28,812 nucleotides of DNA from Planctomycetota bacterium (GTDB lineage: Bacteria; Planctomycetota; SZUA-567). Positions 157 through 27,918 of this stretch are shown piece by piece (position 1 is the stretch's first letter; each line of letters opens with the position of its first letter). Location of the stretch: assembly GCA_031547475.1 (NCBI GenBank), contig JAVBRW010000421.1, forward strand, positions 1 to 28,812. The letters are read 5' to 3'. A program made the position numbers and the translations under genes. The notes beneath the pieces are model-generated. The model was not told the DNA's origin and ran no database searches. It saw only the letters and a program-made list of their open reading frames with translations.

Positions 157-163
157 AATAGGA

Positions 164-11207: not shown

Positions 11208-11244
11208 CGGCACGCACGAAGATATCGTTTAAGCAATCGCTCAA

Positions 11245-11729: not shown

Positions 11730-11876
11730 GGCGGTCGCCTTTCGGGGGACGATTGATTGAACCCAACCGTATGGCAACACAATGTAATCCGTCCGCCTCG
11801 CATGGCAAGCGGGAACGCGAATATTCATTCAAAAACAATTTTCTTGCGTAATCCGGAAGGGAGGGTACAGTACATT

Positions 11877-13401: not shown

Positions 13402-14450
13402 GTATGGAAGTGAGCATCGACAAGCGTTTCGGCAGGTTTCATCTCCGCGTCGATTTCCGGAGCGGGGGCGGCGTCCTTGGCCTGCTCGGCCCGTCCGGCT
13501 GCGGCAAAAGCATGATCCTGAAATGCATCGCCGGCGTCGAAACGCCCGACAGCGGGCGGATAGTCCTGAACGGCCGCGTTCTCTACGACTCCACGGCGGG
13601 CATCGATATCCGCCCGCAACAGCGCCGCGTCGGCTACCTGTTCCAAAGCTACGCACTTTTTCCCCGCATGAACGTGGCGGAAAACATCGCCGCCGGCGTC
13701 CGGGGCACGGCAACCGACAAGGCGGCGGCGGTCGAACAGTGGATCCGGCGCCTCCGCCTCGAAGGGCTGCAGCGGAACCTCCCGGACCAGCTTTCCGGCG
13801 GGCAGCAACAGCGCGTCGCCCTCGCCCGCATGCTGGCGGCGGAACCGGAAGCGGTTCTCCTGGACGAGCCGTTTTCCGCCCTCGACGCGCATCTCCGCGA
13901 ACACATGCAGCTTCTTCTCCTCGACACGGTGAAGGATTGCGCCGACGTGTTCATGGTGTCGCACAGCCGCGACGAAATCTACAAACTCTGCGAACAGACC
14001 TATGTGCTTTCCGACGGGAAAATCGCGGCCGGCGGGGGCACCCGCGATCTGTTCCGCCGCCCGGGGCGTCTGGAAGTCGCGCGGCTTCTCGGCTGCAAGA
14101 ATTTCTCCCGGGCCGAAATACTCGACGACTTCACTCTCCGCGCCCTGGATTGGGATCTCGTATTGAAAACGGCCGAACGGATTGCCCCCGATGTCCGGCA
14201 TGTCGCCATCCGCGCCCATGATTTCGTGCCGTGCGCGGCCAATCCGGGCCAGTGCGACAACCTGGTCGCCCTTCGCGTGCGGGAACGCTCTGAAGATCCG
14301 TTCGAATGGAATATCCTGTTCACCAATGCCCGCGCCGCGAATGAAAACGCCGCCGCCAGCCTGTGGTGGAAATTCAGCAAATACGCCAACCGCGATATTC
14401 CCGCCTTTCTCCGTCTGCCCCCGGAAAAGCTGCTGCTGCTTACAGAATAA
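13398..14450 (+). CDS. modC: Molybdate ABC transporter ATP-binding protein
   Basis: 350 aa from MSMEVSIDKRFGRFHL, ATGA-overlapping modB. GPSGCGKS, GYLFQSYALFP, LSGGQQQ, LLDEPFSALD. Confidence 0.92.
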   Translation: MSMEVSIDKRFGRFHLRVDFRSGGGVLGLLGPSGCGKSMILKCIAGVETPDSGRIVLNGRVLYDSTAGIDIRPQQRRVGYLFQSYALFPRMNVAENIAAGVRGTATDKAAAVEQWIRRLRLEGLQRNLPDQLSGGQQQRVALARMLAAEPEAVLLDEPFSALDAHLREHMQLLLLDTVKDCADVFMVSHSRDEIYKLCEQTYVLSDGKIAAGGGTRDLFRRPGRLEVARLLGCKNFSRAEILDDFTLRALDWDLVLKTAERIAPDVRHVAIRAHDFVPCAANPGQCDNLVALRVRERSEDPFEWNILFTNARAANENAAASLWWKFSKYANRDIPAFLRLPPEKLLLLTE

Positions 14451-14517
14451 TGCCGTTTCCGCCATCATCCTGTCCACAGCGCGCCTGCAACCTGTTTGTC
14501 GCCACCCGCATTTCCGG

Positions 14518-15636
14518 TCAAACAACGGCTTTCTTGTGGGAAACGCAGTTCTTTTCGATCAGGTTCCAGTCGAGTTCGACGCCGAGCCCGGGCTTGTCCG
14601 GCACGGTGATGACGCCGTTGCCGTCTATCGGCAGGTTGCCGAGCATGGGGAAGCGGAAATCCTCCTCGGGGACGAAGTATTCGAAGAATTCGCAGTTGCG
14701 GACGGCGCAGGAGACATGGAGGTTGGCGATGTCCATGTAGTTCATGGTGGTGGTGTGGATTTCGCAGCGCATGCCGAAACTCTCGGCCAGATGGGCGATT
14801 TTCAAGGTCCCGGTCACGCCGCATTTCCACGACACGTCGGCGCGGACAATGTCGGCGGCCTTGCGGGCGATGGTCTGGGCGACGCCCCAATGGCAGCCGC
14901 GCGTCGTCTCGGTCGCGGCGACGGGGAGATCGAGGGCGGCGCACAGTTGCGAATACTTCTCCAGCTCGAAGTCGCGGAACGGCTCCTCCAGCCAGACGTA
15001 GTCCAGTTTTTCCAGATCGCGCCCGACCCGGATCGCCTCGTCCAGCGTGTATTCGCCAACCGGATCGCTCATCAGAAGCATGTCCGGGCCGACCGCCTCG
15101 CGGAGCGCCCGGTGGATTTCCATGTCGAAACGCCAGGGGCCGGGCGGGTGCGCCTTATAGCATGAAATGCCCCTCTTCTTGTAGAGGAGCGCCTCCTCCA
15201 CATACTCGTCGACGGTGGCGTGAAACAGTCCGCTGGCGTACACCGGCAACGTGTTCCGGTACGCTCCCAGATATCGGTAAAGCGGCAGGCCGGCCGCCTT
15301 GGCCGCCATGTCCCACAGGGCGGTGTCCACCGGCCCGGGAAGGTATACGGGGAAAAAGGTCAGGTGCCGATCCATGTTCCAGAATTCGTGCCAGATCTTT
15401 TCGCGATCATGGGGCGAACGGCCCAGCACCACCGGCGCGATGTTGTCGTGGAGATACGCCTCCGTCACCTTCCCCGACCGGGCGGCAAGCACCGTGGCGA
15501 TACCTTCCACGCCCGAATCGGCGGTCAGTTTCAGCACCACCACGTCCCAGGCCATGGCGCTCTTGCCTGTCCGCCGCTCGTCGAACAGCGACTTGTCCCT
15601 CTTCACCCACCAGGTTTCGAATGCGGTTATATTCAT
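14518..15636 (-). CDS. Enolase-superfamily (mandelate racemase subgroup) enzyme, probable acid-sugar dehydratase
   Basis: 372 aa from MNITAFETWW. VDTALWDMAAKAAGLPLYRYLG, metal ligands D/E/E (MSDP, WLEEP, ATET), His (CEIH), PDKPGLGVELD. The beta-2 motif is K-x-H. Confidence 0.9.
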   Translation of the reverse strand: MNITAFETWWVKRDKSLFDERRTGKSAMAWDVVVLKLTADSGVEGIATVLAARSGKVTEAYLHDNIAPVVLGRSPHDREKIWHEFWNMDRHLTFFPVYLPGPVDTALWDMAAKAAGLPLYRYLGAYRNTLPVYASGLFHATVDEYVEEALLYKKRGISCYKAHPPGPWRFDMEIHRALREAVGPDMLLMSDPVGEYTLDEAIRVGRDLEKLDYVWLEEPFRDFELEKYSQLCAALDLPVAATETTRGCHWGVAQTIARKAADIVRADVSWKCGVTGTLKIAHLAESFGMRCEIHTTTMNYMDIANLHVSCAVRNCEFFEYFVPEEDFRFPMLGNLPIDGNGVITVPDKPGLGVELDWNLIEKNCVSHKKAVV

Positions 15637-15662
15637 TGTCCGGCAACCTTTCCTTGATGATG

Positions 15663-17063
15663 TCAAAATCCGAAATACTCTTTCGCATTGTTGTAGCAGA
15701 TGTTTTGGATGACTTTTTTGATGTCCGCCTCGCTCGAGAAATACTCGCCGCGCTCGATCAGATTGCCGAGGTAACTGCACAGGACGCGGCGGTACAACTC
15801 GTGGCGCGGATAGCTGAGAAAGCTGCGGCTGTCGGTGAGCATTCCCACGGACAGTCCGACCGGATAGAGGTTCGCCGCCGCCTCGAACTGGCGCATAATG
15901 CCGTAGGACTGGTCGTTGAACCACCAGGGGGCGCCCAGTTGCACCTTGGCCCGGGTGCCGCCGCCGCAGAACCCCGCCGCCAGGACGGCGAACGTTTCTA
16001 TATTGGTCGGATCGAGAGGGTACAGGATGGTCTTGGGCAGGCTGTTCTGCCGGTTCAGGCGATCGAGAAGGGCGCCGACGCTCTTCACGCCGGTCGAGTC
16101 GTCGGTGCAGTCGAAGCCGCAGGCGGCGCCGATCTCCCTCTCCCCCTTCCGGTTGGCGCCCTGGTAGGTGCCGATGTGCAATTGCATGACAAAGCCGTGA
16201 CGGCTGTAGAGCCCGCCCAGCGCGGTCAGGAAGGCGCTCCGGTATCGGGCTTTCTCGACCTCTGTGATCGCCTGCCCGTTCAGCGCCTTTTTGAACACCG
16301 CTTCTATTTCGGCCGGTTCGAAGTCGCTCCACGCGAAATCCTCGATGCCGTGATCGGAGACGGTGGTGCCGAAGGTTTTGAAAAAGACCAGCCGTTTCTC
16401 CAGCGCCTGGATCAGCGCGGCGAATGAGCCTATTTCCATGCCCGCCGCCTTGGACAACAGGGGAATATACTGCGTGAAATAGGGCTTTTCGCAGTAAAAC
16501 GCCTTGTCCGGCCGGAAGGCGGGCAGGACGCGGGTTTTGAAGCCGGTGCCGTCCCGGAAGGCGGAATGGTGTTCCAGGGTGTCGACGGGATCGTCGGTGG
16601 TGCAGACGATCTCGACATTGGAATGCTCCATGCACCAGCGCGGCGTCATGCCCTTCTCGGCGATGGCCGCCCTGGTGCGGCGGTAGATGTCGTCCGCATT
16701 GGTGGCGGAAAGCGGTTCGTCGATGCCGAAATAACGCTTGAGTTCGAGCGCGCACCAGATGTAGAGGGGGTTGCCGATCAGCTCGGGGAAAATCCGGGCG
16801 AAGGCCAGGAATTTCTCATAATATCCGGCGTCGCCGGTGATGAACTTCTCGTCGATGCCGAATGTGCGCATCGCCCGCCATTTGTAGTGGTCGTGGGCGA
16901 GCCACATCTCCCCCAGGTCGGTGAACACCTTGTTTTCCCTGATTTCGGAAGGGAGAAGGTGACAATGATAGTCGATGATCGGCATGTCTTTGGCATAGGC
17001 GTGGTACAGCCGCTTGCCGGTGGGGTTGGTCAGCAGCAGATCTTCGGAAAAAGCGTTGTTCAC
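15663..17063 (-). CDS. uxaC: Uronate (glucuronate/galacturonate) isomerase
   Basis: 466 aa from a GTG after an AGGAGA RBS. PIIDYHCHL, HDHYKWRAMR, GNPLYIW, CTTDDP, FRPDKA, QLGAPWWFNDQ, GMLTDSRSFLSYPRHE. Confidence 0.96.
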   Translation of the reverse strand: MNNAFSEDLLLTNPTGKRLYHAYAKDMPIIDYHCHLLPSEIRENKVFTDLGEMWLAHDHYKWRAMRTFGIDEKFITGDAGYYEKFLAFARIFPELIGNPLYIWCALELKRYFGIDEPLSATNADDIYRRTRAAIAEKGMTPRWCMEHSNVEIVCTTDDPVDTLEHHSAFRDGTGFKTRVLPAFRPDKAFYCEKPYFTQYIPLLSKAAGMEIGSFAALIQALEKRLVFFKTFGTTVSDHGIEDFAWSDFEPAEIEAVFKKALNGQAITEVEKARYRSAFLTALGGLYSRHGFVMQLHIGTYQGANRKGEREIGAACGFDCTDDSTGVKSVGALLDRLNRQNSLPKTILYPLDPTNIETFAVLAAGFCGGGTRAKVQLGAPWWFNDQSYGIMRQFEAAANLYPVGLSVGMLTDSRSFLSYPRHELYRRVLCSYLGNLIERGEYFSSEADIKKVIQNICYNNAKEYFGF

Positions 17064-17089
17064 GAAAATGTCTCCTCGCTGGAAGTGTC

Positions 17090-17854
17090 CTAAAATCCGA
17101 TGAGCGCCCCGCCGTCGACAGGCAGGCAGACGCCGTTGACATAGGCGGCGGCGGCGCTCGACAGGTAGACGGCGGCCATGCCGATGTCGTCGGGCGTTCC
17201 CGTCCGCTTCATCGGGATGCGGCCGAGAATTTTGGCCAGGCGCGGCGCGTCGTTGTCGGTGGCCTGGTGGAACATGGGCGTCTCGATCCAGCCGGGCGCG
17301 ATGGCGTTGACCCGCACGCCGTGCGGCCCGCACTCGCTGGCCAGGGTATGCACCAACCCGAGCACGCCCGCCTTGGCGGTGGAATAACCGGCGACGTTGG
17401 GCTGGCCGATGAAGCTGGTCATGCTGGCCTGGAAAATGACGCTCCCCCGCCCCGCCGCCTTCATCCCCGGAATGACCGCCTTGGCCAGGGCGAAGGCGCC
17501 GACCAGGTGGACGTTCAGGACGCGGGTGAAATCGTCCACCGTCATTTCCTCCACCGGCTTTTTGCAATGGTTGCCGGCATTGTTGACCAGAATGGTGACG
17601 GGGCCGTGCTCGGCCGCTATGGAATCGACCGCGCGCCCGGTGTTGGCGGTGTCGGTGACATCGAATTGGCGGTAGAATACGTTCCCGCCGAGTTCGGCCA
17701 ACGTCTCGGCGTTCGCTTCGGCGGGCCGCGTCCCCAGCGCCACCACCCTGGCGCCGGCCCCGGCCAGACAGCGGGAAATGGCCAATCCCAGCCCGGTGAC
17801 GCCGCCGGTCACGATTGCCGTGCGGCCGGACAATGAAAACAGTTCCAATGCCAT
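17090..17854 (-). CDS. Short-chain dehydrogenase/reductase (KduD / gluconate 5-dehydrogenase-like)
   Basis: 254 aa from MALELFSLSG; TGGVTGLG, LVNNAG, GYSTAK (YxxxK), VNAIAPGWIET, PVDGG. Confidence 0.9.
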   Translation of the reverse strand: MALELFSLSGRTAIVTGGVTGLGLAISRCLAGAGARVVALGTRPAEANAETLAELGGNVFYRQFDVTDTANTGRAVDSIAAEHGPVTILVNNAGNHCKKPVEEMTVDDFTRVLNVHLVGAFALAKAVIPGMKAAGRGSVIFQASMTSFIGQPNVAGYSTAKAGVLGLVHTLASECGPHGVRVNAIAPGWIETPMFHQATDNDAPRLAKILGRIPMKRTGTPDDIGMAAVYLSSAAAAYVNGVCLPVDGGALIGF

Positions 17855-17873
17855 ATGCGTTCGCTTCTCCTTG

Positions 17874-19085
17874 TCATGTCCCGCACGCGCGGCACGCGGC
17901 GGGCGGTTCCTGGTATTTGTACGGTATGCAGTATTCGCGGTGGCCCAGCAGTTCGCCCTTGGTCTGCGTCCCGGCGGCAACCGCCGCCACCATTCCGGCC
18001 AAATCCATGGCGGCTTCGTCGGAGCGGCGATCGCCCCGCAGCACCACGCCGGCGTCGAAGTCCATGTCGTCGGCCATGCGCGCGAACGTGTCGCTGTTGC
18101 CGGTCACCTTGACGACCGGCGTCACCGCGTTCCCCACCACGTTGCCGCGCCCGGTGATGAAAAGAAGCAGATGGCAGCCGGAGGCGGCGAGGGCGGTGAG
18201 GCCCTCGTTGTCGTTGGGGTTGGATATGCCGTATTGCAGCCAATGCGGATCGGGGATGGTGTCCAGGAGCCACAGGCCCGGCCGGGTCGGCCGCATCCCG
18301 ACCTTGAGAATGCCCTGGATCGGGCGGCTGCCGCTCTTGATCACGGCGCCCATGCTTTTTTCCTCGATGCTGGACAGGCCGCCGACAAAATTGCCCGGGC
18401 TGATGGAGTACTGCCGCGTCGCCTTGCAGTAACCAAGCGCCTTGTCGTAGGCTTGCCGGATCGCCTCCTTCGCCTCGGCGTCGGCGCCGCGTCCGCACAG
18501 CAGATCGCCCAGGCCGATGGCTTCGAGTATCTCCTCGAACATCGCCGTCCCGCCGGCATCGACTAGAAGATCGAAAAAACGGCCGACAACCACGTTCCCG
18601 GCCAGGCCGCTCGTGTAATCGCTGCCGCCGCACTCGCCGCCCACCACCAGATCGGCCATGCCCATCTCGACGCGGGGCGTATGGCGCAGTCCGTCCAGGA
18701 GGCGTTTGGCGGCGGCCGCTCCCTTCTCTATCGACTTGAGCGTGCCGCCCGCTTCCTGGATGAACAGCCAATCGGCCTCTTTGCCGGCGCTTGCCGCCGC
18801 CTCGGCCAGTTTGGCGGGCTGGATGTATTCGCAGCCCAGGCCGACGGCCAGGACGGCGCCTATGTTGGGATGGCGGATCAGGGCGGACAGCAGGCGCACG
18901 GCATAGGCGTTGTCGTTGCAGCCGTGAAAGCCGACGACATCGGCATCGTCGCCCGCAAGGGCGGCGATCCTTTTCGCCACGAATGAGGCGCATTCAACCG
19001 TGTAGACGACGAGCAGACGGTTGCGTATGCCTTTCCCGCCGTCCGCCCGCGCGTAACCAAGCCAGCGGAAATCCCGCATCGCCAT
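17874..19085 (-). CDS. UxaA/GarD-family dehydratase, catalytic (beta) subunit
   Basis: 403 aa; GIRN, TVEC, HGC, HPNIGAVLAVGLGCE, ECGGSDYTSG, EEKSMGAVIKSG, FITGRGN. No N-terminal SAF domain. Confidence 0.92.
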   Translation of the reverse strand: MAMRDFRWLGYARADGGKGIRNRLLVVYTVECASFVAKRIAALAGDDADVVGFHGCNDNAYAVRLLSALIRHPNIGAVLAVGLGCEYIQPAKLAEAAASAGKEADWLFIQEAGGTLKSIEKGAAAAKRLLDGLRHTPRVEMGMADLVVGGECGGSDYTSGLAGNVVVGRFFDLLVDAGGTAMFEEILEAIGLGDLLCGRGADAEAKEAIRQAYDKALGYCKATRQYSISPGNFVGGLSSIEEKSMGAVIKSGSRPIQGILKVGMRPTRPGLWLLDTIPDPHWLQYGISNPNDNEGLTALAASGCHLLLFITGRGNVVGNAVTPVVKVTGNSDTFARMADDMDFDAGVVLRGDRRSDEAAMDLAGMVAAVAAGTQTKGELLGHREYCIPYKYQEPPAACRACGT

Positions 19086-19111
19086 TGCCTGCTCCCGGCC
19101 CGCTCCGGCCA

Positions 19112-19447
19112 TCAGTACCGCGTCTCGGCGGACGTGCCGGTGGCGGGATCGAGTTTGTTGGATTTTTCGTCGAAGTTGCTGCCCATGCAATGCAGATGGA
19201 CCCAGCCGCCCTTGCGGATAGGGGCGGTCGCCCTGCCGATGGGCACGCCGTATTTGACAATGTTCTCGCCGGCGGCGATGTCGCGGATCGCGATCTTGTG
19301 TCCGGCCGGCACCTCGTCCACCGCCACCATAAACGGTTCCGCCGCGTCGCCGCGCAGGCCGACGCGCGCGCCGGCGGGCACAGGCCCGAGCGCGGTGGCG
19401 ACATTGTCTTTCGCGTCAATCTGGAAAGCGGTCGGCTCTTTTGGCAT
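19112..19447 (-). CDS. SAF-domain protein, small (alpha) subunit of the split UxaA-family dehydratase
   Basis: 111 aa; DAKDNVATAL, VPAGHKIAIRDIAAGENIVKYGVPIG, GGWVHLH. Confidence 0.92.
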   Translation of the reverse strand: MPKEPTAFQIDAKDNVATALGPVPAGARVGLRGDAAEPFMVAVDEVPAGHKIAIRDIAAGENIVKYGVPIGRATAPIRKGGWVHLHCMGSNFDEKSNKLDPATGTSAETRY

Positions 19448-19461
19448 TGAAAACGCTTCGT

Positions 19462-20127
19462 TCACAGAATGCCGAATTTGGCGAAAGCGGCGGTGGCGGT
19501 CATGCCGTTCTCGATGGCTTTGCGGACCATTTTTTCGCCCGCCGCCTTTTCCAGGGATTTCTCCAAAACCTCGCCGGCGATCTCGGCCGGAATGACCAGG
19601 ACGCCGTCGACATCGCCGAACAGCAGATCGCCGTTCTTGATGGTGGCCTGCCCTACCTCGATGCGGCAGCGGAAATCGACGACCTGGGTGCGGACGCCCG
19701 AATCCTGGGCGTAGCAGCCGCGACTGAAGACGGGCCAGTTCTGTTCCAGCACCTGCGGCGTATCGCGGTGCCAGCCGTCGACCACCGCCCCGACCGCGCC
19801 GCGTACGCGGGAGGTGGCGGTCAACAGCTCGCCCCAGTAGGCGCAACGTTTGGCGCCGCCGGCGGCGACATAAATATCGTTCTTCTCGAGCTGGTCGAGC
19901 GCCTCGGTCAGCAGGCCGAACGGCTTTTTCTGCGGGCCGAAAACATCGATCATGAGGACGGGCATCGCCTTCCCCGCCAGCTTCATGTCGGGCCGGAGCG
20001 GCCGGATCTCGGGCGGCAGGAATTGATGGTAATAACCCATCGTGTCCAGAATATCGCCCACCACCGGCGTATAGAGCTTTTCCCGCATGAGCGCGAACAT
20101 CTCGTCTTCGTTTTTCCAAACAGCCAT
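19462..20127 (-). CDS. RraA-family protein (HMG/CHA aldolase-like, putative 2-keto-3-deoxy acid aldolase)
   Basis: 221 aa; [43 protein letters not shown]. Confidence 0.88.
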
Positions 20128-20158
20128 GTCTGCCCCTCTCGGAATGGGAAATGAATTT

Positions 20159-20905
20159 TCAAAAGCCGAAAGCCAGCGCGCCGCCGTCGACGGCGTAGTC
20201 CTGGCCGGTTATGTATTTCGCCGCGTCGGACACCAGGACCAGGGCCATGGCGCCGATGTCGGCGGGATCGCCGAATTTGTGCACAGGCATGCGGGCGAGA
20301 ATCTTCGCCTTGCGGTCGGCGTCCATGACCTGCTTGCTCATCTCGGACGGGAACCAGCCGGGCGCGATCGAGTTGACTGTGATATTGTCCCCCGACCATT
20401 CCACCGCCAGCCCCCGGGTCATGGCGAGGACGGCGCCCTTGCTCGAACAATACGGGACGACTTCGGAAAAGCCGAGATGCGCGGCCATCGAGGATATGTT
20501 GACGATCCTGCCGACGTGCGGCGACGCTTTCAGATGCGGAAAGCACAGGCAGGACAGTTTGAATACGCTCGAGACGTTGACCTTGTGTATTTTTTCGAAA
20601 TCCTCGTCCAAAAACGCTTCCGCCCGCTTCTTGACGGTGACGCCGGCGTTGTTGACGAGGAAGTCCAGCCCGCCCCGCCCGGCCGCCTCTTCCACCGCCC
20701 GGCCCAGCGCCGCGTAATCGCACACGTCGACCGCCCTGTGCATGACGCCGGCGTGCGACTGTCCCGATCCTTCCTTCACCTTGCCGGTGCGGCTGAACCC
20801 GAACACCCTGGCGCCGGCCGCGGCCAGCGCGTTGGCGATGGCCAAACCGAGCCCGCTCGAGGCGCCGGTGACAATGCCGGTTCTTCCGTCGAGGTTGAAC
20901 ATCAT
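20159..20905 (-). CDS. Short-chain dehydrogenase/reductase
   Basis: About 248 aa from [13 protein letters not shown]-overlapping the esterase, with an [42 protein letters not shown]. Confidence 0.9.
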
Positions 20906-21690
20906 CCATTCTCCTTGGCAAAAATCACATCCAGCCATTCCACGCATTGCCGGAACCAGCCCGCCACGTGCGGATCGACCAGGCGGTTCTCCTCCGGCTG
21001 GGCGACCTCCCCGGTCGCCAGCGACAGTCCATGGACGCCGAAGGGATAAATATGCATTTCCACCGGCACCCCGTATTCGATGAGCGCTTCGGCGAAGCGG
21101 AGCGAATTCTGCACCGGCACCGTCTGATCCGCGGCCGTGTGCCACAGGAAGGTCGGGGGCGTGTCGAGGTTCACATGCTTTTCCAGGGAAAAGTAGCGGG
21201 TATCGCTATCCGTGCCGGCCAGCCGCTCGAAACTGGTCGGATGGCGGTGAAGGCCGTCGGTGATGACGGGATAGCCGAGGATAAGGGCGTCGGGCCGGTG
21301 CCGCCGCCGCTCCTCCGCATCGGGGAACAGCGCCGCGTCGTTCCAATGCACTCCGAGGCTGGCGGCGAGGTGGCCGCCGGCGGAAAAGCCGCACACGGCA
21401 AGCGGCTTGCCGGACAACCCCGTCTCCTCCCCCAGCCGCCTGGCCGTTTTGACCGCCCAGGCTGCCTCCCGCAAGGGTTTTGTGCCCAGCGCCTCGTCCT
21501 CCACCGAATAGGTGAGGACGATAGCCTGCCACCCCGCCCCGGCGAAGGCCCGCGCCACCGGTTCCGCCTCGCGGGGCGACACGAACCAGTAGCCGCCGCC
21601 GGGACAGACGACGACCATCCCTTTCGCGCCCGGGAGGGGCGTGTATTCGAGCCGCGCCCCGGTCTCCGGGCTGTCAATGCGTTTTTCCAA
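20902..21690 (-). CDS. Alpha/beta hydrolase (carbohydrate esterase-like, BD-FAE/Aes type)
   Basis: About 262 aa from a TTG after an AAAGGA RBS. Oxyanion CPGGGY, nucleophile GFSAGG, Asp (ADQTVP), His (HGLSL). No signal peptide. Confidence 0.87.
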   Translation of the reverse strand: MEKRIDSPETGARLEYTPLPGAKGMVVVCPGGGYWFVSPREAEPVARAFAGAGWQAIVLTYSVEDEALGTKPLREAAWAVKTARRLGEETGLSGKPLAVCGFSAGGHLAASLGVHWNDAALFPDAEERRRHRPDALILGYPVITDGLHRHPTSFERLAGTDSDTRYFSLEKHVNLDTPPTFLWHTAADQTVPVQNSLRFAEALIEYGVPVEMHIYPFGVHGLSLATGEVAQPEENRLVDPHVAGWFRQCVEWLDVIFAKENG

Positions 21691-21719
21691 AATGCCCGTC
21701 CTTTTCTCCAGCGTTTCCG

Positions 21720-23033
21720 TCAGCCGCCCACCTGCACCGGCATAAGCAGGTCGGGCAGGAACATGACAATCCCGGGGATATAGGTGATGATCAACAGCAC
21801 CGCAATCATGACCACGAAGAAGGGAAGGAGCGTCTTGGTCAGGCGCTCGATAGGCACGCCCGACACGGCCGATCCGACGAACAGCGTCCCTCCCACCGGC
21901 GGGGTGATGAGGCCGATGCCGAGGTTGAGGATGACCACCACGCCGAAATGCACCGGATCCATGCCCGCCTTGATGGCGATGGGAAGGAGTATGGGCGTCG
22001 CGACCAGGATGATGGCGGACATGTCCATTATGGTGCCGAGCATGAGCATGAGCAGATTCAGGATCAGCATGATCAGGTACGGGTTCTCGGTCAGGCCGAG
22101 GATGGCGCTCGCCACCATCTCGGGCATTTTCAGATAGGTGAGGAGCCAGCCGAACACCTGCGAGGTCGAGATGAGGATCATGACGATTGCCAACGTGCCG
22201 AGCGATCGCTCGATGACATGCCACATCTTCACCAGCGTCAATTCGCGGTAGACGAGCGAACTGACGAGCATCGCCCACACCACGGCGATGGCGGCAGACT
22301 CGGTGGCGGTGAAAATGCCGGTGACCACGCCCACCACCACGATAAAGACGGTGATCAGCCCCCATACGGCGTCGACGAAAGCGGCGCCGACATTGCGGAG
22401 GCTGAAGGCGTCGCCCTTCGGGTAGTTCCGCTTCACCGCCAGGTAATAGCTGTAAACCATGAGCGCGAGGCCGAGGAATATGCCGGGCACGATGCCGCCG
22501 AGGAACAGCCGGCCGACCGACACGCTGCCCGCCACCATGGCGTACATCACCATGTTGTGGCTGGGCGGAATGAGCAGGCCCTGGACCGAGCTGGTCATGG
22601 TGACGTTGGTGGAAAACTCGTCGTCATACCCCTGTTTCCGCATGATGGGGATGAGGAGGGTGCCGAGGGAGGCGGTGTCGGCGGTCGACGATCCGGAAAT
22701 GCCGCCGAAGAACATCGAGGCCACGATATTGACCATGGCCAGGCCGCCCCGAAGCCAGCCCACCAGCGCGTCCGACAGCCGGATAAGCCGGGCGGAAATG
22801 CCGCCGGCGCCCATCAGCTCGCCCGCGATGATGAAGAACGGCACCGCCATCAGGGTGAACACGTTCACGCCCTTGACCATGATCTGGGCGATCTGCGTGA
22901 GGGGAAGCCCGAGGTAGAGGGTGGTGATCAGGCTGGACAGGCCGATGGCGAAGGCGATGGGGAAGCGGCAGATCAGCATGATGAAAAAACTGCCGACCAG
23001 AAGGAACACGGCGATTGTGTCTGTGCTTTGCAT
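21720..23033 (-). CDS. dctM: TRAP transporter large permease
   Basis: 437 aa; LMAVPFFIIAGELM, FGGISGSSTAD, IPPSHNM, GIFTATE, DPVHFG, GLITPPVG. Confidence 0.96.
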   Translation of the reverse strand: MQSTDTIAVFLLVGSFFIMLICRFPIAFAIGLSSLITTLYLGLPLTQIAQIMVKGVNVFTLMAVPFFIIAGELMGAGGISARLIRLSDALVGWLRGGLAMVNIVASMFFGGISGSSTADTASLGTLLIPIMRKQGYDDEFSTNVTMTSSVQGLLIPPSHNMVMYAMVAGSVSVGRLFLGGIVPGIFLGLALMVYSYYLAVKRNYPKGDAFSLRNVGAAFVDAVWGLITVFIVVVGVVTGIFTATESAAIAVVWAMLVSSLVYRELTLVKMWHVIERSLGTLAIVMILISTSQVFGWLLTYLKMPEMVASAILGLTENPYLIMLILNLLMLMLGTIMDMSAIILVATPILLPIAIKAGMDPVHFGVVVILNLGIGLITPPVGGTLFVGSAVSGVPIERLTKTLLPFFVVMIAVLLIITYIPGIVMFLPDLLMPVQVGG

Positions 23034-23036
23034 AAT

Positions 23037-23603
23037 CTAGTTCTCCCCCGCCAACTGGGTGGCCGCATCCTCCACCAACTCCTTGGCCTCCTCCTCGATG
23101 GTGCCGCCCTTCAGGGTGACGCCCCGGCGCAGGCGGTCGAAGAAGTTGATCAGCCGTTCGATCTCCATCAGGCAGATGGCGACGCCCGCCACCGGGTTCG
23201 CCAGGTACAGCCAGGTGGAGCGGATGCCGACGCCGGTGATGATGTTCCGCCTCGCAACCCGGACAATGAAATCCCAGCCGTAGTAGATCATGAACAGGCC
23301 GAAGACGAATATCCCGATATGGGCGGCGCAGCGCATGACGGCGATGGCCCACTTGGGCGCGACAAAATCGATGACCATCATGCGGATATGGGTGTCTTTG
23401 CGGATGGCCAGGGCGGCGCTGACCAGGGACATGTACACCATGCACATCAACACCACCGGCTCGCCCCAAACCATGCTGCCCTTGAGGACGTAGCGGTTGA
23501 AAACGACAGCGGCGGTGATGGCCACCATGCCGATAAAGCAGAGCTTGCACGAAGTCATGAAAAACCAATAGACCGCATCGAAAAACCTGGTCACAATCCT
23601 CAA
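23037..23603 (-). CDS. dctQ: TRAP transporter small permease
   Basis: 188 aa with four TM segments; VFNRYV...WGE, HIRM; lies between dctP and dctM. Confidence 0.92.
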   Translation of the reverse strand: MRIVTRFFDAVYWFFMTSCKLCFIGMVAITAAVVFNRYVLKGSMVWGEPVVLMCMVYMSLVSAALAIRKDTHIRMMVIDFVAPKWAIAVMRCAAHIGIFVFGLFMIYYGWDFIVRVARRNIITGVGIRSTWLYLANPVAGVAICLMEIERLINFFDRLRRGVTLKGGTIEEEAKELVEDAATQLAGEN

Positions 23604-23640
23604 GATTCATCCTCCCCGCAGCATTGTCGCGGACCGGGAA

Positions 23641-23671
23641 GCCGCGGCCCCGCGCCGGGCGGGGTCGCGGC
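23641..23671. other. Intercistronic GC-rich stem-loop between dctP and dctQ
   Basis: GCCGCGGCCCCGC-N5-GCGGGGTCGCGGC, 13-bp arms with one non-Watson-Crick position. Confidence 0.65.
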
Positions 23672-23685
23672 TCTTTGGAAACAGC

Positions 23686-24696
23686 CTACATGCCCTGGAT
23701 GGCTTCGACATATTTCTCGTAGCCGGAGGCGTACTTCTTGACCACGCCCTTGGTGGCTTCGATGAACGGCGTCTTGTCGGGGATTTCGATGACGTTGGCG
23801 CCGGCGGCCTTGATTTTCGCGAGAAGATCGTTGTCGAGCTTTTCGATGCTCGCCTTGTTCCAGATCTCGGTCTCCTTGCCGGCGTCCATCAGGATTTTCT
23901 TGTCCTCGTCGTCCAGCTTGCCCCAGGCGTCGGAACCGATGAGGACGATGGAGGGGCTGTAGGTGTGGCCGGTCAGCGAATAGTTGGGCGCGACTTCATA
24001 GAACTTGTTGGAAAAATAGCCGGAATGCGGCTGCTCGGCGCCGTCGACCGTGCCGGTCTGGAGCGCGGAGTAGAGTTCGGAAAAGCTGATGGGGGTGGAC
24101 TGGACGCCCAGGGCGGAAGCGGTGTCGGTCAGCAAATCGTTGGTGGGAACGCGCAGCTTCAGCCCCTTCAGGCTGGCCAGGCTGTCCACCTTCACGTTCT
24201 TGACGGTGAAGAAATTGCGGGCGCCCTCGTCCAGATAGAACAGCCCGACCATGCCGGCGTCGATGTCCTGCGGCTCGTGCAGGAACTCCTGGCCGATGTC
24301 GCTATGGAGCACTTTCCACAGGTGGTCGCGATCGCGGAAGATGAACGGCATGCCGAACAGGGCAAGCTTGTTGATGCCGAAGTCGGCGAGGGAGTTGGTG
24401 TTGCCCCGGCACATGTCCAGGGCGCCGCCGCCCATCTGGAGCGTCTGGTACATGCCTTTCTCGTCGGCGAGCTGGCCGGCGGGATAGACTTCGATGACGA
24501 TGCGGCCGCCGGATTTCTCCTTGACCAGTTCGGCGAACTTGTCGCCGCACAGATCCATGATGTGGCCGTCCGGATTCACTTCCGCGTATTTGAAACGGTA
24601 GCTCTTCTTCTCACCGGCCGGGGAAACGCCGGCGATCAGCGCGAAGGCCAGGGAAAACACGGCTACCGCCAGCACCGCAGTCGACATTCTTTTCAT
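23686..24696 (-). CDS. dctP: TRAP transporter substrate-binding protein
   Basis: 336 aa from MKRMSTAV after a GGAGGA RBS. Signal peptide, VYPAGQL, GARNFF, conserved carboxylate-binding Arg in GLKLRV, ELYSALQTGTVDGAE. Confidence 0.95.
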   Translation of the reverse strand: MKRMSTAVLAVAVFSLAFALIAGVSPAGEKKSYRFKYAEVNPDGHIMDLCGDKFAELVKEKSGGRIVIEVYPAGQLADEKGMYQTLQMGGGALDMCRGNTNSLADFGINKLALFGMPFIFRDRDHLWKVLHSDIGQEFLHEPQDIDAGMVGLFYLDEGARNFFTVKNVKVDSLASLKGLKLRVPTNDLLTDTASALGVQSTPISFSELYSALQTGTVDGAEQPHSGYFSNKFYEVAPNYSLTGHTYSPSIVLIGSDAWGKLDDEDKKILMDAGKETEIWNKASIEKLDNDLLAKIKAAGANVIEIPDKTPFIEATKGVVKKYASGYEKYVEAIQGM

Positions 24697-24821
24697 TTGC
24701 AATCCTCCATTGACGAGAAAGAAAAACCGCCGTTCCAGCCACGAACAAAAAGACATCCATCCGCCGACGCAACGCGCCGGGGAGAAGACAAGAGAGGTTT
24801 TGCACAAGTATTATCGCCTTG

Positions 24822-25904
24822 TCAGGCAATGACCGCGTTCAATGTCCGTTGTCCGGATTGAAACAGGGGAAGGGCGCTCCGGAAGACTATCTCGCTTCCC
24901 ACCGTCAAGGTATCCCGGGACGGCGGCACTCCCTTCAGCAAATATTCAAGCAGGCATTTGGCCGCCATATAGGATTGGGAATACGGGTTTTTGTGAAGCA
25001 GGTTGGTGAACGTCCCCCGTTCGAGGAACCGTATGTTCTCCTCGAACACATCGCAACCGATCGCCGGCATCCCGCCCGCCCTGCCGGTCTTTTCCAGCGC
25101 CTTGCCCAGCATGACGCTGCCGCGCGCATAGACGCAACAGCAGGCGGATATGCCCTGGTTCCGCATGAGCGCGCCCACGATGTCCTGATAGACGTCCCGC
25201 ATATTGCCGTTGTCGTGGACGCGGATGACCTTCCCCCGGCGGTCGCGCTCTTCGAAATACGCTTCCAGGCCGAGGCAGATCTGGTAGTGCGCCGGGGTCA
25301 GCGCATTGCCGGCGCAGAGCAGGACATCGCCGGCCGACGCCTGCCATGACAGCAGCTCCGCCACCGTCCTCCCGACCACGTCGTAATTCGGCTCGACGCA
25401 GCACAGCCGGCCCGCTTCGGGGACATCGCTGCCGACCAGGACCATGGGGATGTCGCGCTGCCTGAACCGCTGCAGCAGCGACCGGCACCCGCTGTCCATA
25501 TAACCCAGAGTCAATATGCCGTCGACATCCTGGCGCTCCAGCAGCTTGGCCAGCTCAATCGCCTGGCCTTCGGCGTCATTGTAATACGGGAACTCCAAAA
25601 CCTCGACCTTGAAGTCCCGCATCGAGGACAGATAGTCGTGGAATCCGTCCCAGACATAGGTGAAATAGAACCGGTTCTCGTTGGTGGGCCCGGGAAAGGC
25701 GGCGGCGATGCGAATCGTCTTGCGCTTCAACGAGGCGGCCACCGCGTTCGGGCGATAGCCATGCAATTTGGCGATATCCATGATTCTAAGGCGCGTCTCT
25801 TCGCCGACGCCGGGCTTGCCGGCCAGGGCGCAATGCACTGTCCCGATGGAAACGCCCGCCTTTTCGGCAATATCCTTGATGGTCACACGCTTGGTCAATG
25901 TCAT
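24822..25904 (-). CDS. LacI-family transcriptional regulator
   Basis: 360 aa; HTH VTIKDIAEKAGVSIGTV, hinge YRPNAVAASL, periplasmic-binding-protein-like C-terminal domain. Confidence 0.95.
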   Translation of the reverse strand: MTLTKRVTIKDIAEKAGVSIGTVHCALAGKPGVGEETRLRIMDIAKLHGYRPNAVAASLKRKTIRIAAAFPGPTNENRFYFTYVWDGFHDYLSSMRDFKVEVLEFPYYNDAEGQAIELAKLLERQDVDGILTLGYMDSGCRSLLQRFRQRDIPMVLVGSDVPEAGRLCCVEPNYDVVGRTVAELLSWQASAGDVLLCAGNALTPAHYQICLGLEAYFEERDRRGKVIRVHDNGNMRDVYQDIVGALMRNQGISACCCVYARGSVMLGKALEKTGRAGGMPAIGCDVFEENIRFLERGTFTNLLHKNPYSQSYMAAKCLLEYLLKGVPPSRDTLTVGSEIVFRSALPLFQSGQRTLNAVIA

Positions 25905-25913
25905 TGCCTTATC

Positions 25914-25930
25914 GCAACAAAAACGTTTTT
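25914..25930. promoter_or_regulatory. LacI-type operator O1
   Basis: Perfect palindrome AAAAACGTTTTT (25919-25930) with a central CG, just downstream of the predicted transcription start. Confidence 0.7.
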
Positions 25931-25944
25931 TCCCATATTTTTAT

Positions 25945-25973
25945 ACTATACTCCGCCATGAGCGGTAAGTCAA
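25945..25973 (-). promoter_or_regulatory. Sigma70 promoter of the sugar-acid operon
   Basis: TTGACT(25973-25968)-N17-TATAGT(25950-25945). Confidence 0.75.
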
Positions 25974-25979
25974 ACATAG

Positions 25980-26008
25980 TTTACAATAGAATTTATTTTT
26001 TATATCAT
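25980..26008 (+). promoter_or_regulatory. Divergent sigma70-like promoter with no obvious downstream gene
   Basis: TTTACA(25980-25985)-N17-TATCAT(26003-26008). Confidence 0.5.
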
Positions 26009-26087
26009 ATTACATTTAAAAATGTTACAAAAACATCATTCATCTTTCCCTGCGATATACGGCAAAAAACAGCCAAATATCCCAGAC

Positions 26088-26103
26088 AAAACGTTTTTGT
26101 TGC
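26088..26103. promoter_or_regulatory. LacI-type operator O2 (inverted copy of 25914-25929)
   Basis: AAAACGTTTTTGTTGC is the exact reverse complement of GCAACAAAAACGTTTT at 25914-25929. Confidence 0.65.
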
Positions 26104-26215
26104 ATGACAATAATGGCGATGCTTTTGGCGGCCGGGCATTTTTGCCAGCGCCATGCTCCGCAATCGTCCGGGCAGGCATCGGCCTGCGGCTTCATCCCGG
26201 GCGGCACGGCTCACG

Positions 26216-26243
26216 AAAAACCGGCGCCCCGTTCGGGCGCCGG
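26216..26243 (-). terminator. Rho-independent terminator of the upstream minus-strand gene(s)
   Basis: 9-bp GC stem CCGGCGCCC/GGGCGCCGG with a 5-nt loop, followed on the minus strand by TTTTT. Confidence 0.8.
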
Positions 26244-26427
26244 ACCGGAATACATGCATCGGAACGGCAATTCCGCCGTACCCCTCAACCCAACTCAATC
26301 GCATCAAGCCGGTTTTGAATATAGTGGAACAACCCGCCCTGTTCGCAGATGGCGGCGATGAAATCGATAACATTGCGGGTTTTCCCGTACCGATGAGACC
26401 ATCAGCCGGATGGAGTTTGCGGAATCC

Positions 26428-27918
26428 TCAGCGCCAGCCGACGCTGAAATGCCCGGCGGCCGTGCGCTCGCCGTAGAAGTTGACGGCCTCGAACACCACC
26501 TTATAGGCGCCGTAATCGAAGTCCTCGACGTCGAGTTCCTTCCAGTACGAGCCTTTCCTGATATGTTCGTTCCGGCTGTCGATCAGCTTTTTCACCACCC
26601 TGCCGCGCTTGTCGTACACGGTCAGCTTGATCATGCTGTCCTGGTCGAGGGAATAGCGCACCTTGACGATCATCCGCCCGCCGCCAATCACCACATGCTC
26701 GGGCTCAAACGAAAGTTTGAGGTTGGGGATGCCGCGCTTCGCTTCCCGCCTGACCGGCTGTTTCGGCTGCGGCTTCGGCGCGGGAGGCTTCGGGGCCGGC
26801 GCGAGCGTCACCCGATTCGATTCGACAGCCGTCTCGTCGCCCGCCAGGGGCCGGACGACGGCCCGCAGCCAATGCGTTCCCGTCTCGTAGAACTCGAATT
26901 CCTCGGTGTCCACCCGTTTCCACGTGAATTCGTGCGTGCCCTTGGGGTACAGAATGGATGTCCTGCCCTCGACGCTTTCGCCTATCAGGTCGGTCTTGCC
27001 GTTGTCCGCCACGTGCCGGAGCTCGACGTATGCCGGCTGGTTCAGGGTCAGCGTGAAAGGCACGACGTCATCGTCCTTCACCTTCAGGTTCGCCGGCGCG
27101 TTCAGCTTCACCGCCGCCGCCAACTGCGGCGGCGCGGCCAGTTCGTACTCGAAGGTCAGCGTTTCCGATTCGCCCAGCGTGTTCTTGATGGCAATCCGGG
27201 TCGTATAGCGTCCGGGCTCGAGAGGCTTCTCGTCCTCGCCCATAAGGTCGGATCGCACTGTATGCTTGCCCGGCGACATGGGGCCTTCCCAGCGGGAGAC
27301 TTCGTTTCCTTCCGCGTCGGTATCGGTTATCTCGGCCAGGCCGAAGCCGGTGGAGGTGAAGGTCAAAGCCGGCGCGCCGCCGTACTCCAGCACCGCCTTG
27401 CGGGTGGAAATCGACGGATCCGACACGGTGGGCGGCGCCGAGACGACGTTCAGCGGGAAAATCGCCCCCATCAACAGTCCGCCGTAGCGCTCGCCCTTGA
27501 TGTTCATGAGCACCTTATAGGCGCCGTCCTTGACTCGCCTGCCTTCCCTGTCCTTTGCGTCCCAATTGAAGAGAACCGGGCCGGATCTTCTCACGCCGCC
27601 GCCAAGAATGGGGCTTATCTGGTTGAATTTGGAGTCCATGACCATAAAGGCGGTTTCCATCTTTTCCGGCTGGTCGCCATTCTCCGCCTCCCTGAACTCG
27701 AATTCCACCGCCGCCACCGGGATCTCGCCCTCCTGGCTGGCGTCCAGCCATTCCTCGACCAGGGCGATCTTGAGCGTGACATACTTGTTTTCGCCGAACT
27801 CGCCGCGCAAACAATTGCTTTTGATTCCTTCGGGGATCTCGGCCGCGCCGGCCACCCCCGGCATGAGCAAGATTGAAAGGAGAAACAGATGGGCCAATCC
27901 AAGCGAGCGCATTTTCAT
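26428..27918 (-). CDS. Secreted hypothetical protein with four FlgD-like Ig repeats
   Basis: 496 aa from MKMRSLGLAH after a GGAGAC RBS. Signal peptide ending VAGA, FNWDAKDREGRRVKDGAYKV, a Pro-rich linker, and C-terminal IKLTVYDKRGRVVKKL...GAYKVVFEA. Confidence 0.8.
   Translation of the reverse strand: MKMRSLGLAHLFLLSILLMPGVAGAAEIPEGIKSNCLRGEFGENKYVTLKIALVEEWLDASQEGEIPVAAVEFEFREAENGDQPEKMETAFMVMDSKFNQISPILGGGVRRSGPVLFNWDAKDREGRRVKDGAYKVLMNIKGERYGGLLMGAIFPLNVVSAPPTVSDPSISTRKAVLEYGGAPALTFTSTGFGLAEITDTDAEGNEVSRWEGPMSPGKHTVRSDLMGEDEKPLEPGRYTTRIAIKNTLGESETLTFEYELAAPPQLAAAVKLNAPANLKVKDDDVVPFTLTLNQPAYVELRHVADNGKTDLIGESVEGRTSILYPKGTHEFTWKRVDTEEFEFYETGTHWLRAVVRPLAGDETAVESNRVTLAPAPKPPAPKPQPKQPVRREAKRGIPNLKLSFEPEHVVIGGGRMIVKVRYSLDQDSMIKLTVYDKRGRVVKKLIDSRNEHIRKGSYWKELDVEDFDYGAYKVVFEAVNFYGERTAAGHFSVGWR

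Follow-up and report, generated by a model that had tools for sequence, protein, structure and literature searches.

The window analysed in this study, a stretch of 28,812 nucleotides of a Planctomycetota bacterium (contig JAVBRW010000421.1 of assembly GCA_031547475.1), contains an operon of 12 genes that constitutes a new variant of hexuronate catabolism. It encodes a repressor of the LacI family, a tripartite ATP-independent periplasmic (TRAP) transporter, the isomerase UxaC, two short-chain dehydrogenases/reductases (SDRs), two unrelated dehydratases and an esterase, together with an RraA-like protein, which is the member of prime interest. In the reading that we favour, and to which we assign a probability of about 0.45, the operon would be repressed by LacI and serve to import and degrade a sugar acid of the hexuronate type, with the RraA-like protein cleaving a keto-deoxy acid without the involvement of a kinase. 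For anaerobes, among them the Clostridia of the human gut, the uronic acids of pectin, hemicellulose, gums and host glycans represent major sources of carbon, and the textbook catabolism of these acids ends with the action of KdgK and Eda.

The operon extends from position 14518 to 25904 and consists of 12 open reading frames (ORFs) on the minus strand, all with matches in Pfam, which follow each other in the order LacI, DctPQM, esterase, SDR1, RraA-like protein, SAF-domain protein, large subunit of a UxaA-type dehydratase, SDR2, UxaC and enolase-superfamily enzyme, with intergenic gaps of -4 to 125 bp (Table 1). Since the window is rich in G+C (about 0.53-0.67 per kb) and contains many long spurious ORFs, the real frames were chosen by third-position G+C content and Pfam matches, and gene starts were derived from a survey of start codons and ribosome binding sites; none of the eight competing overlapping ORFs that were tested in this region matched Pfam. 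A preliminary description had reported 11 co-oriented and closely spaced genes, of which the orientation, the spacing, the named list and the exact coordinates stand and the count is corrected to 12. Its statement that UxaB/UxuB, UxuA, KdgK and KdgA are missing from the cluster is borne out by Pfam and curated models, which detect no Mannitol_dh (UxaB/UxuB; PF01232, PF08125), UxuA, PfkB or KDPG-aldolase domain among the operon proteins, and the two SDRs, the two unrelated dehydratases, the pyruvate-aldolase-family protein, with its catalytic residues intact, and a bona fide UxaC are all present as described. The proposal of a self-contained sugar-acid operon led by LacI and equipped with its own import system also holds, in light of a single promoter, two candidate operators and a TRAP transporter of putative hexuronate type. 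Because most of this gene set recurs in seven of 80 related loci, the arrangement goes beyond chance.

A comparison with the Ashwell pathway of E. coli and B. subtilis, which proceeds via UxaC, UxaB/UxuB, UxaA/UxuA, KdgK and KdgA/Eda, illustrates both the relationship and the differences. The operon shares with it an orthologous UxaC and a dehydratase of the UxaA family, and the two reductase/dehydratase branches of that pathway, which converge on a keto-deoxy acid, fit the gene content found here. In contrast, the operon contains no long-chain reductases of the mannitol-dehydrogenase type, no UxuA, no KdgK and no Eda and features two classical SDRs instead, its UxaA is split into a SAF protein and a large subunit, an enolase-superfamily enzyme and the RraA-like protein are added, and its regulator is of the LacI rather than the ExuR/UxuR type. 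The preliminary description had suspected an undescribed pathway, and no published pathway matching the cluster was found in the full-text literature, a scope that leaves aside most subscription journals.

The proteins of the operon differ in how closely they can be assigned. UxaC is the only one of the eight enzymes encoded after the transporter genes that reaches the cut-off of a curated equivalog model (NF002794, 533 bits compared to 387), and it is 43% identical to UxaC of E. coli K-12 over 467 residues, which corresponds to the full length. The transporter combines a family-7 binding protein, DctQ and DctM in adjacent genes, with scores above the cut-offs of TIGR00787 and TIGR00786. Among solved structures, DctP is closest to 4X8R and 4N8Y (176 bits, E = 7e-51), which bind glucuronate and galacturonate (PMC11668362), and this relationship supports the assignment of DctP as a putative hexuronate-type TRAP binding protein. 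The esterase is nearest to the models of the arylesterase lp_1002 and the pectin acetylesterase PaeX, staying below both cut-offs, and its N-terminus, as judged by eye, is devoid of a signal peptide. Both SDRs fall among the models for KduD, gluconate-5-dehydrogenase and glucose-1-dehydrogenase without passing any of them. The dehydratase of the UxaA/GarD family carries the complete set of SAF, GD_AH_second and GD_AH_C domains, distributed over two genes. Its large subunit shows 33% identity (174 bits) to UxaA and 31% identity (155 bits) to GarD of E. coli, scores that are nearly equal and do not permit a choice between altronate and galactarate specificity, and it reaches 177 bits against the GarD model with its cut-off of 731. 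The enolase-superfamily protein passes none of the models for ManD, GudD, TalrD/GalrD or galactonate, rhamnonate and arabinonate dehydratases (128 bits compared to 550 for ManD, NF043051, and 36 compared to 829 for GudD, TIGR03247). Its best solved relative is an 'isomerase/lactonizing enzyme' from A. tumefaciens (1RVK/4HCD, 181 bits), of which the entry 4HCD is reportedly titled a D-glucarate dehydratase.

With UxaC as part of the operon, the remaining proteins can be arranged into a sequence of import, de-esterification, isomerisation, reduction by SDRs, dehydration by two enzymes and cleavage. Family assignment shows import by the TRAP transporter, via a binding protein akin to binders of glucuronate and galacturonate, and an aldose-ketose isomerisation by UxaC. 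The other steps are inferred and proposed with more reservation: the cytoplasmic esterase might take an O-acyl group off the imported acid or open a lactone, SDR1 and SDR2 might reduce keto-uronates to aldonates in place of UxaB/UxuB, perhaps along the two stereochemical branches that the preliminary description had proposed, and the split UxaA-type and the enolase-superfamily enzymes might dehydrate these aldonates to one or several 2-keto-3-deoxy-hexonates. The RraA-like protein would then act on the keto-deoxy acid, most likely by a retro-aldol cleavage that yields pyruvate and a C3 aldehyde and that dispenses with a kinase step.

The features of the RraA-like protein are best appreciated in relation to the HMG/CHA aldolase (LigK/PcmE/GalC) of P. 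putida F1 (3NOJ), a class II pyruvate aldolase that belongs to the same PF03737 family. Gly99, Arg121, Asp122 and Glu198 of the window protein align with Gly101, Arg123, Asp124 and Glu199 of 3NOJ and are thus equivalents that have been retained. In the aldolase, Arg-123 is essential and stabilises the pyruvate enolate, and Asp-124 and Glu-199 are the acidic metal-binding residues (PMC5065237). The RDT motif is found in all 120 homologues among the matches listed. The substrates of HMG/CHA aldolases are 4-hydroxy-2-keto acids, which places them into the same functional class as keto-deoxy sugar acids, whereas their context is aromatic ring cleavage and not a sugar-acid operon. The scores are equally distinct, with 42.6 bits to 3NOJ and values against the LigK/PcmE models of 78.7 bits compared to a cut-off of 304.5 (TIGR02798) and 82.5 compared to 179 (NF006731). 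The best NCBIfam model of the protein, NF006093, yields 90 bits compared to 208, and it does not qualify as the RNase E inhibitor RraA, with 30.2 bits compared to 136 (NF006875) and E = 2.5e-4 for the solved RraA 3C8O. The retained catalytic residues, the replaced residues of the pocket and the scores below the models of RraA and LigK/PcmE alike suggest that it is an active enzyme of the pyruvate-aldolase type, which would depend on a metal and act on a different substrate.

Homologues of this protein are numerous, with more than 5,700 at E <= 1e-10 and identities of 78-100% among the 120 matches listed, where the only names are RraA family protein, regulator of RNase E activity RraA and (putative) 4-hydroxy-4-methyl-2-oxoglutarate aldolase. 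Longer forms are found as well. In one protein family (P0125, 18 member sequences), an esterase of the Abhydrolase_3/BD-FAE/Peptidase_S9 type and an RraA-like domain, which is 61% identical to the window protein, are fused in 486 amino acids, and other long forms contain DUF3826 (P0122) or a sulfatase domain (P0126). The genome itself encodes four other RraA-like paralogues on contigs C79, C140, C409 and C53, which were set aside as uninformative on the window protein in view of their unrelated contexts. These consist of a 2-hydroxycarboxylate transporter with a GntR regulator and an aconitase-family protein in one case, of IclR, TRAP and amidohydrolase genes in another, of an OMP-decarboxylase/HUMPS fusion in a third, and of a position beside Ser/Thr kinases in the last.

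The genomic neighbourhoods of the RraA-like protein bear on its role. A scan of one genome per species identified 80 loci with an RraA-like gene of 66-86% identity, which were searched by tblastn with the 12 operon proteins and whose neighbouring ORFs were clustered and assigned by Pfam on representatives. These loci are distributed over about ten phyla and include Bacillota (Clostridia, Negativicutes, Bacilli), Spirochaetota, Synergistota, Planctomycetota, Deferribacteraceae and Chloroflexota (Flexilinea), with further carriers in Bifidobacterium, Fusobacterium, Bacteroidota, Kiritimatiellia and two Pseudomonadota. The SAF protein is encoded in 55 loci, the UxaA large subunit in 53 and an SDR2-like protein in another count of 53, and the genes for RraA, SAF and UxaA are directly consecutive in 50. 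UxaC is present in 27 loci, or in 34 when divergent copies are counted, the enolase-superfamily gene in 28, the esterase in nine and a TRAP transporter of the window type in eight. All eight TRAP-bearing loci also contain the esterase, the ninth esterase locus ending at a contig edge, and close homologues of SDR1 (14 loci) coincide with the enolase-superfamily gene in 12 cases, with cut contigs in the other two. The combination of TRAP (DctM), esterase, RraA-like protein, SAF, UxaA large subunit, SDR2, UxaC and enolase-superfamily enzyme is found in seven loci from Clostridia and Sphaerochaetaceae (L007, L016, L019, L023, L040, L053 and L058), of which four also encode SDR1. The locus closest overall resides on an incomplete Planctomycetota contig (L055) and spans the genes from LacI to the UxaA large subunit.

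Within the module, the RraA-like protein is the best conserved (66-86% identity), ahead of the UxaA-type large subunit (about 55-73%) and of SDR2 (50-73%). Its clade occurs in a single one of 151 genomes from the order of the genome that harbours L016, which is that genome itself. Both the high identity across phyla and this patchy occurrence suggest horizontal spread, and the RraA-SAF-UxaA-SDR core points to a mobile module in many phyla of anaerobes. The genome in question, from Marasmitruncus massiliensis (G002), contains three paralogues of the RraA-like protein with 84%, 69% and 50% identity.

The composition of the other loci illustrates which components can be exchanged. In 14 of them, a divergent UxuA-type dehydratase is located beside RraA and an SDR, and 12 of these lack the UxaA type. 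Altogether, 69 of the 80 loci (including L027, L083 and L085) encode a dehydratase for sugar acids that belongs to any of three unrelated families, usually together with an SDR; of the 11 remaining loci, five extend for less than 2 kb on one side of the RraA-like gene and a sixth for less than 3 kb. A KdgK-like gene is found in one locus and an Eda-like gene in three. The order AraC, UxuA-like, RraA, SDR, DctPQM and UxaC is found in L038, whereas L033 assembles both dehydratase-SDR pairs around one RraA (UxuA-like, SDR, RraA, SAF, UxaA, SDR) and L027 combines TRAP, UxaC and RraA with a conventional UxuA. Further cassettes contain another enolase-superfamily enzyme with RraA, SDR and an SMP-30 lactonase (L083), a UxuA-like dehydratase with SDR, RraA and a beta-propeller lactonase (L069 and kin) or RraA and SDR with an isomerase of the RpiB/LacAB type (L077), and the fucose-type locus L085 encodes a fucosidase, an aldo/keto reductase, RraA, an amidohydrolase_2 protein, two SDRs and a UxaA large subunit. 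No other aldolase was found in the cassettes L038, L033, L083, L069, L085 and L077. It is thus the unit of dehydratase, SDR and RraA-like protein that is constant, with the family of the dehydratase being interchangeable.

The product class common to these dehydratases is a 2-keto-3-deoxy acid, which is a 4-hydroxy-2-keto acid, and to our knowledge the only aldolases of the RraA fold act on compounds of that kind. Known kinase-free routes of sugar-acid breakdown combine a dehydratase with either a reductase or a dehydrogenase and with an aldolase that releases pyruvate and a C3 or C2 aldehyde. Bacterial non-phosphorylative routes for L-fucose, D-arabinose and L-galactose that employ UxaA-family dehydratases were reportedly described by Watanabe in 2019, and a split UxaA-type enzyme with an SDR is found in fucose-type loci, of which L085 looks to be one. 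The known aldolases of these routes are of the DHDPS/NAL or HpcH type and not of the RraA fold, and UxaC is not part of them. The RraA-like gene in cassettes of dehydrogenase, lactonase and dehydratase stands where the aldolase is found in the known kinase-free routes, another example of which is the fungal D-galacturonate pathway GaaA-D (PMC5488244). Because the dehydratases are interchangeable, their product class is shared and the gene occupies the position of an aldolase, the RraA-like protein probably acts on a keto-deoxy acid. That it would do so as an aldolase forming pyruvate and a C3 aldehyde is a more tentative proposal with slightly less than an even chance of being correct, and non-phosphorylative cleavage is plausible as the best single hypothesis. 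With still greater caution, we suggest that the entire clade of 66-86% identity, with members in Planctomycetota, gut Clostridia, Sphaerochaeta, Synergistota, Bifidobacterium and Fusobacterium, might provide a final step that needs no kinase and can be combined with any sugar-acid dehydratase, be it of the UxaA, UxuA or enolase type.

Published precedent is confined to two cases, since in the literature covered RraA-family proteins were tied to the metabolism of uronate, altronate, 2-keto-3-deoxygluconate (KDG), fuconate, galactonate or arabinonate only by FlDet and by a haloarchaeal cluster. The latter is a mannanase cluster in which manD adjoins an RraA-family gene (PMC10963439). FlDet of Flavobacterium sp. 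UMI-01 is a 27-kDa protein of the RraA family described as 2-keto-3-deoxy-hexarate dehydratase/decarboxylase, which belongs to an oxidative route of alginate breakdown and converts an aldarate derivative to 2-oxoglutarate semialdehyde (PMC8563752). In the literature covered, it is the only RraA-family enzyme with a reported activity towards a keto-deoxy sugar acid of uronate metabolism, and it shows that such acids can be substrates of this family.

The LacI protein has a helix-turn-helix and a sugar-binding domain, and the region upstream of the operon contains palindromic candidate operators with a central CG. Two inverted copies of AACAAAAACGTTTT bracket the predicted promoter. When up to one mismatch is allowed, 11 of the 14 related loci examined have the palindrome AAAACGTTTT no more than 100 bp ahead of the LacI orthologue, and eight of these 11 contain a second site of this type 110-185 bp further up, and the two-site layout is also present upstream of LacI orthologues in other phyla. 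The LacI proteins of the three loci without a site are only 34-37% identical to that of the window. We take the AAAACGTTTT sites as the putative operator of an autoregulated operon, to which the repressor would bind, and the conserved candidate operator offers a handle for finding the inducer. In its own genome, the 10-nt palindrome occurs 11 times. The only third exact copy of the 14-mer, on contig C173, was rejected as a regulon member and taken as a chance occurrence because it falls within the first part of a fliH-like gene that belongs to a flagellar operon. Two other palindromes are intergenic, at about position 1270 of contig C410 (L096) and about position 1659 of C382 (L095); one of them precedes a third TRAP DctPQM operon by 84 bp, and the other is found 15 bp ahead of a TctCBA tripartite transporter, which is itself located between a split transketolase and a Zn-dependent alcohol dehydrogenase. 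Both may be further targets of the same repressor, and genes for the split transketolase and the Zn-dependent alcohol dehydrogenase are also found beside the RraA module in some other genomes. Separately, a repeated element of about 90 nucleotides containing AAAACGTTTTGT recurs with near-identical flanks on contigs C160 (about 3080-3170), C402 (about 5560-5650) and C91 (about 13320-13410).

Several observations weigh against the favoured reading. The RraA-like protein, whose clade is uncharacterised, passes no curated aldolase model, and in its distal pocket Phe and Thr take the place of Asn-71 and His-75 of 3NOJ. Both SDRs, both dehydratases and the esterase remain below every curated equivalog cut-off, for which reason their proposed substrates are tentative, and the C3 aldehyde formed by the proposed cleavage has no enzyme assigned to it. 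The assembly comprises 474 contigs with 3.3 Mb and is 75% complete, and it encodes conventional enzymes of hexuronate metabolism outside the operon. On contig C291, a PfkB kinase, whose best model is that of the KDG/KDGal kinase (212 bits compared to 400), is directly followed by Eda (153.3 compared to 156.05), and on C441, a UxuA that passes its own model is followed by a second TRAP system. A second UxaC is broken over two contig ends, the GarD equivalog model is passed by two of three unsplit UxaA/GarD genes, and C75 encodes a glycerate kinase. KDG generated by the operon could therefore simply proceed to KdgK and Eda. In addition, Eda is present in all 16 other carrier genomes checked compared to nine of 14 control genomes, and so is a Mannitol_dh_C gene in the same 16 carriers, a set that was chosen for isolates or long assemblies and is not a random sample; carriers that lack Eda or UxaB/UxuB-type genes were sought and amount to none of the 16. 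The sole match to the mannitol-dehydrogenase family in the genome of the window, on C81, is distant, with 93-134 bits compared to the UxaB/UxuB cut-offs of 359-603.

The joint presence of Eda and a mannitol-dehydrogenase-family gene in the 16 carriers implies that the module is an addition rather than a replacement, and that gene content does not call for a kinase-free route. Likewise, the occurrence of UxuA, the KdgK-like protein and Eda, a second UxaC, UxaA/GarD enzymes and glycerate kinase elsewhere in the genome, which is thus well supplied with genes for sugar acids, identifies the operon as an extra system and not the only route. Since it stands beside a conventional set that includes UxuA, the KdgK-like protein and Eda and unsplit UxaA/GarD enzymes, it is probably used for a substrate or a stereoisomer not accepted by the conventional enzymes. 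As a separate observation on this assembly, two near-equal full-length galactarate dehydratases are encoded on the short contigs C315 and C185 (770.9 and 770.0 bits against the GarD model), which may have arisen by duplication or may represent two strains that were binned together.

These features bear on an alternative that describes the operon as a non-orthologous version of the Ashwell route, in which KDG would be handed to the KdgK-like and Eda proteins of C291 and the RraA-like protein would be accessory, with a role in C4 epimerisation by reversible aldol chemistry, in tautomerisation or ring opening, in the decarboxylation of oxaloacetate or in regulation. The side-by-side location of the two genes on C291, the presence of Eda in all 16 carriers checked and the rarity of the module in the sampled order, which marks it as accessory, would all be expected on this account, and conventional hexuronate clusters are often devoid of kdgK and eda, as for example in B. 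subtilis. However, it speaks against an accessory role that the RraA-like gene is the best conserved of the module and has kept its catalytic residues, and that it recurs in cassettes of dehydrogenase, lactonase and dehydratase with neither an aldolase nor a kinase nearby (L083 and L069), and a regulatory role conflicts with its large distance to the model of the RNase E regulator (30 compared to 136 bits). The preliminary description had named an inactive RraA protein together with kdgK and kdgA genes co-regulated from elsewhere in the genome as observations that would refute its proposal. A KdgK-like gene and eda do exist, as the pair on C291, and UxuA is encoded on C441, but the operator motif is found on neither of the two contigs, so that co-regulation by the LacI protein of the operon is not seen and a regulon link to kdgK-eda or uxuA was discarded. 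Considering both sides, we regard this alternative as unlikely.

A second alternative, which we find distinctly improbable, would place the operon closer to the oxidative gar/gud system. SDR1 would convert a uronate to an aldarolactone, which would be opened by the esterase, thereby giving the latter a role as lactonase, and both dehydratases would convert aldarates to 5-keto-4-deoxy-glucarate, whereas the RraA-like protein would either replace GarL in the formation of pyruvate and tartronate semialdehyde or act like FlDet to yield 2-oxoglutarate semialdehyde, and SDR2 would replace GarR. Such an architecture is realised in E. coli by GarD, GudD, GarL, GarR and GarK, and resembles that of loci with enolase-superfamily enzyme, SDR, RraA and SAF-UxaA but without UxaC (L039, L043 and L052, which contain both dehydratases and one SDR). 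In E. coli K-12, where the genes are present in the annotated gar/gud region, dehydratases of these two superfamilies work together with a single class II aldolase and a single reductase, and GarL has a known non-homologous replacement in the DapA-like GudL (PMC11775122). The latter, which is the 5-KDG aldolase of gut Clostridia, was for the same reason dismissed as a precedent for the RraA fold (PMC11775122). The precedent of FlDet (PMC8563752) and the glycerate kinase on C75 would also agree with an oxidative route. Yet this proposal leaves UxaC idle, which directly follows SDR2 here and is encoded in 27-34 of the 80 loci, and a hexuronate-type TRAP transporter is present as well. Neither dehydratase passes the GarD and GudD models, from which both are remote, the UxaA large subunit is slightly nearer to UxaA than to GarD of E. 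coli, the candidate aldolase and reductase are of other folds than in gar/gud and two proteins elsewhere in the genome already pass the GarD model. Finally, several relatives have GH2 or GH42 glycosidases and ABC importers of the sugar type in their vicinity, and not transporters for aldarates.

Least likely of all, and in our view very improbable, is a pathway of the diketo-hydrolase type, where SDR2 would oxidise the keto-deoxy acid at C4, in analogy to the 4-dehydrogenases of 2-keto-3-deoxy-L-fuconate (L-KDF) and 2-keto-3-deoxy-L-rhamnonate (L-KDR), and the RraA-like protein would cleave the 2,4-diketo acid to pyruvate and glycerate in place of an FAH-family hydrolase, which could draw on the constancy of the SDR-RraA-dehydratase triad, on model NF009399, describing FAH-family proteins whose C-terminal part matches RraA-like domains, on the glycerate kinase of the genome and on the fucose-type locus L085, but which is at odds with the minimal UxaC clusters L038, L041 and L049, whose single SDR is needed as keto-uronate reductase, and with the matches of SDR2, which are only generic SDRs and show no specific similarity to solved 4-dehydrogenases of keto-deoxy acids, and we know of no hydrolase in the RraA family.

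If the RraA-like protein is indeed an aldolase for keto-deoxy acids, as the favoured reading proposes, anaerobic bacteria would possess a non-phosphorylative route for hexuronates, and thousands of genes that are currently named 'RraA family protein' or '4-hydroxy-4-methyl-2-oxoglutarate aldolase' would gain a function. Metabolic reconstructions would then have to include a kinase-free branch of sugar-acid breakdown, and the protein would offer a new scaffold of a metal-dependent aldolase for keto-deoxy sugar acids. Should its role instead be accessory, the finding would shrink to a further non-orthologous version of a pathway that is already well known.

Table 1. Genes and candidate regulatory elements of the operon, with positions in the window.
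Feature	Position	Strand	Remarks
Intrinsic-terminator-like hairpin	26221-26243	-	9 G-C pairs and T run; ends gene 26428-27975; upstream border of operon
Distal operator candidate AAAACGTTTTTGTT with palindrome AAAACGTTTT	26088-26101	.	
Sigma-70-type promoter TTGACT-17-TATAGT	25945-25973	-	Predicted; 10/12 matches; best minus-strand site in 14200-26500
Proximal operator candidate AACAAAAACGTTTT	25916-25929	.	12-25 nt ahead of LacI start, between -10 box and LacI start codon
LacI-family repressor, 360 aa	24822-25904	-	HTH LacI PF00356 and Peripla_BP_4 PF13407; no equivalog passed
TRAP solute-binding protein DctP, 336 aa, N-terminal signal-like segment	23686-24696	-	PF03480
TRAP small membrane subunit DctQ, 188 aa	23037-23603	-	PF04290
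TRAP large permease DctM, 437 aa	21720-23033	-	PF06808; TIGR00786 419 bits, cut-off 268
Serine esterase, cytoplasmic, 262 aa	20902-21690	-	Abhydrolase_3/BD-FAE type, GFSAG motif
SDR1, classical short-chain dehydrogenase, 248 aa	20159-20905	-	KduD/gluconate-5-dehydrogenase/glucose-1-dehydrogenase neighbourhood; no equivalog passed
RraA-like/HMG-CHA-aldolase-fold protein, 221 aa	19462-20127	-	PF03737
SAF-domain small subunit, 111 aa	19112-19447	-	Corresponds to N-terminal part of UxaA/GarD
UxaA/GarD-family dehydratase large subunit, 403 aa	17874-19085	-	GD_AH_second and GD_AH_C
SDR2, 254 aa	17090-17854	-	SDR accompanying the RraA-SAF-UxaA core
UxaC, glucuronate/galacturonate isomerase, 466 aa	15663-17063	-	NF002794 equivalog passed
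Enolase-superfamily (MR-type) acid-sugar dehydratase candidate, 372 aa	14518-15636	-	No equivalog model passed

The genes surrounding the operon belong to other systems. Upstream, a protein of 515 residues (26428-27975, minus strand) shows only short matches to FlgD Ig-like and DUF2271 domains, and its gene ends in a strong terminator. On the other side, an ABC operon of the molybdate type on the plus strand, with SBP_bac_11 at 11932-12696, a permease at 12712-13401 and an ATPase in a frame ending at 14450, converges on the sugar-acid operon, leaving 67 bp between the stop codons, and is accompanied by a small divergent HTH_1 gene at 11400-11828. The region from 1 to 11232 contains a mannose-6-phosphate-isomerase-like gene (417-1526), genes for a methyl-accepting chemotaxis protein of 912 residues (1632-4370) and a GGDEF diguanylate cyclase (4567-5832), and, on the minus strand, the genes of an ABC importer (5839-10830), namely two ATPase genes together with those of a double permease and a binding protein of the SBP_bac_6 type.

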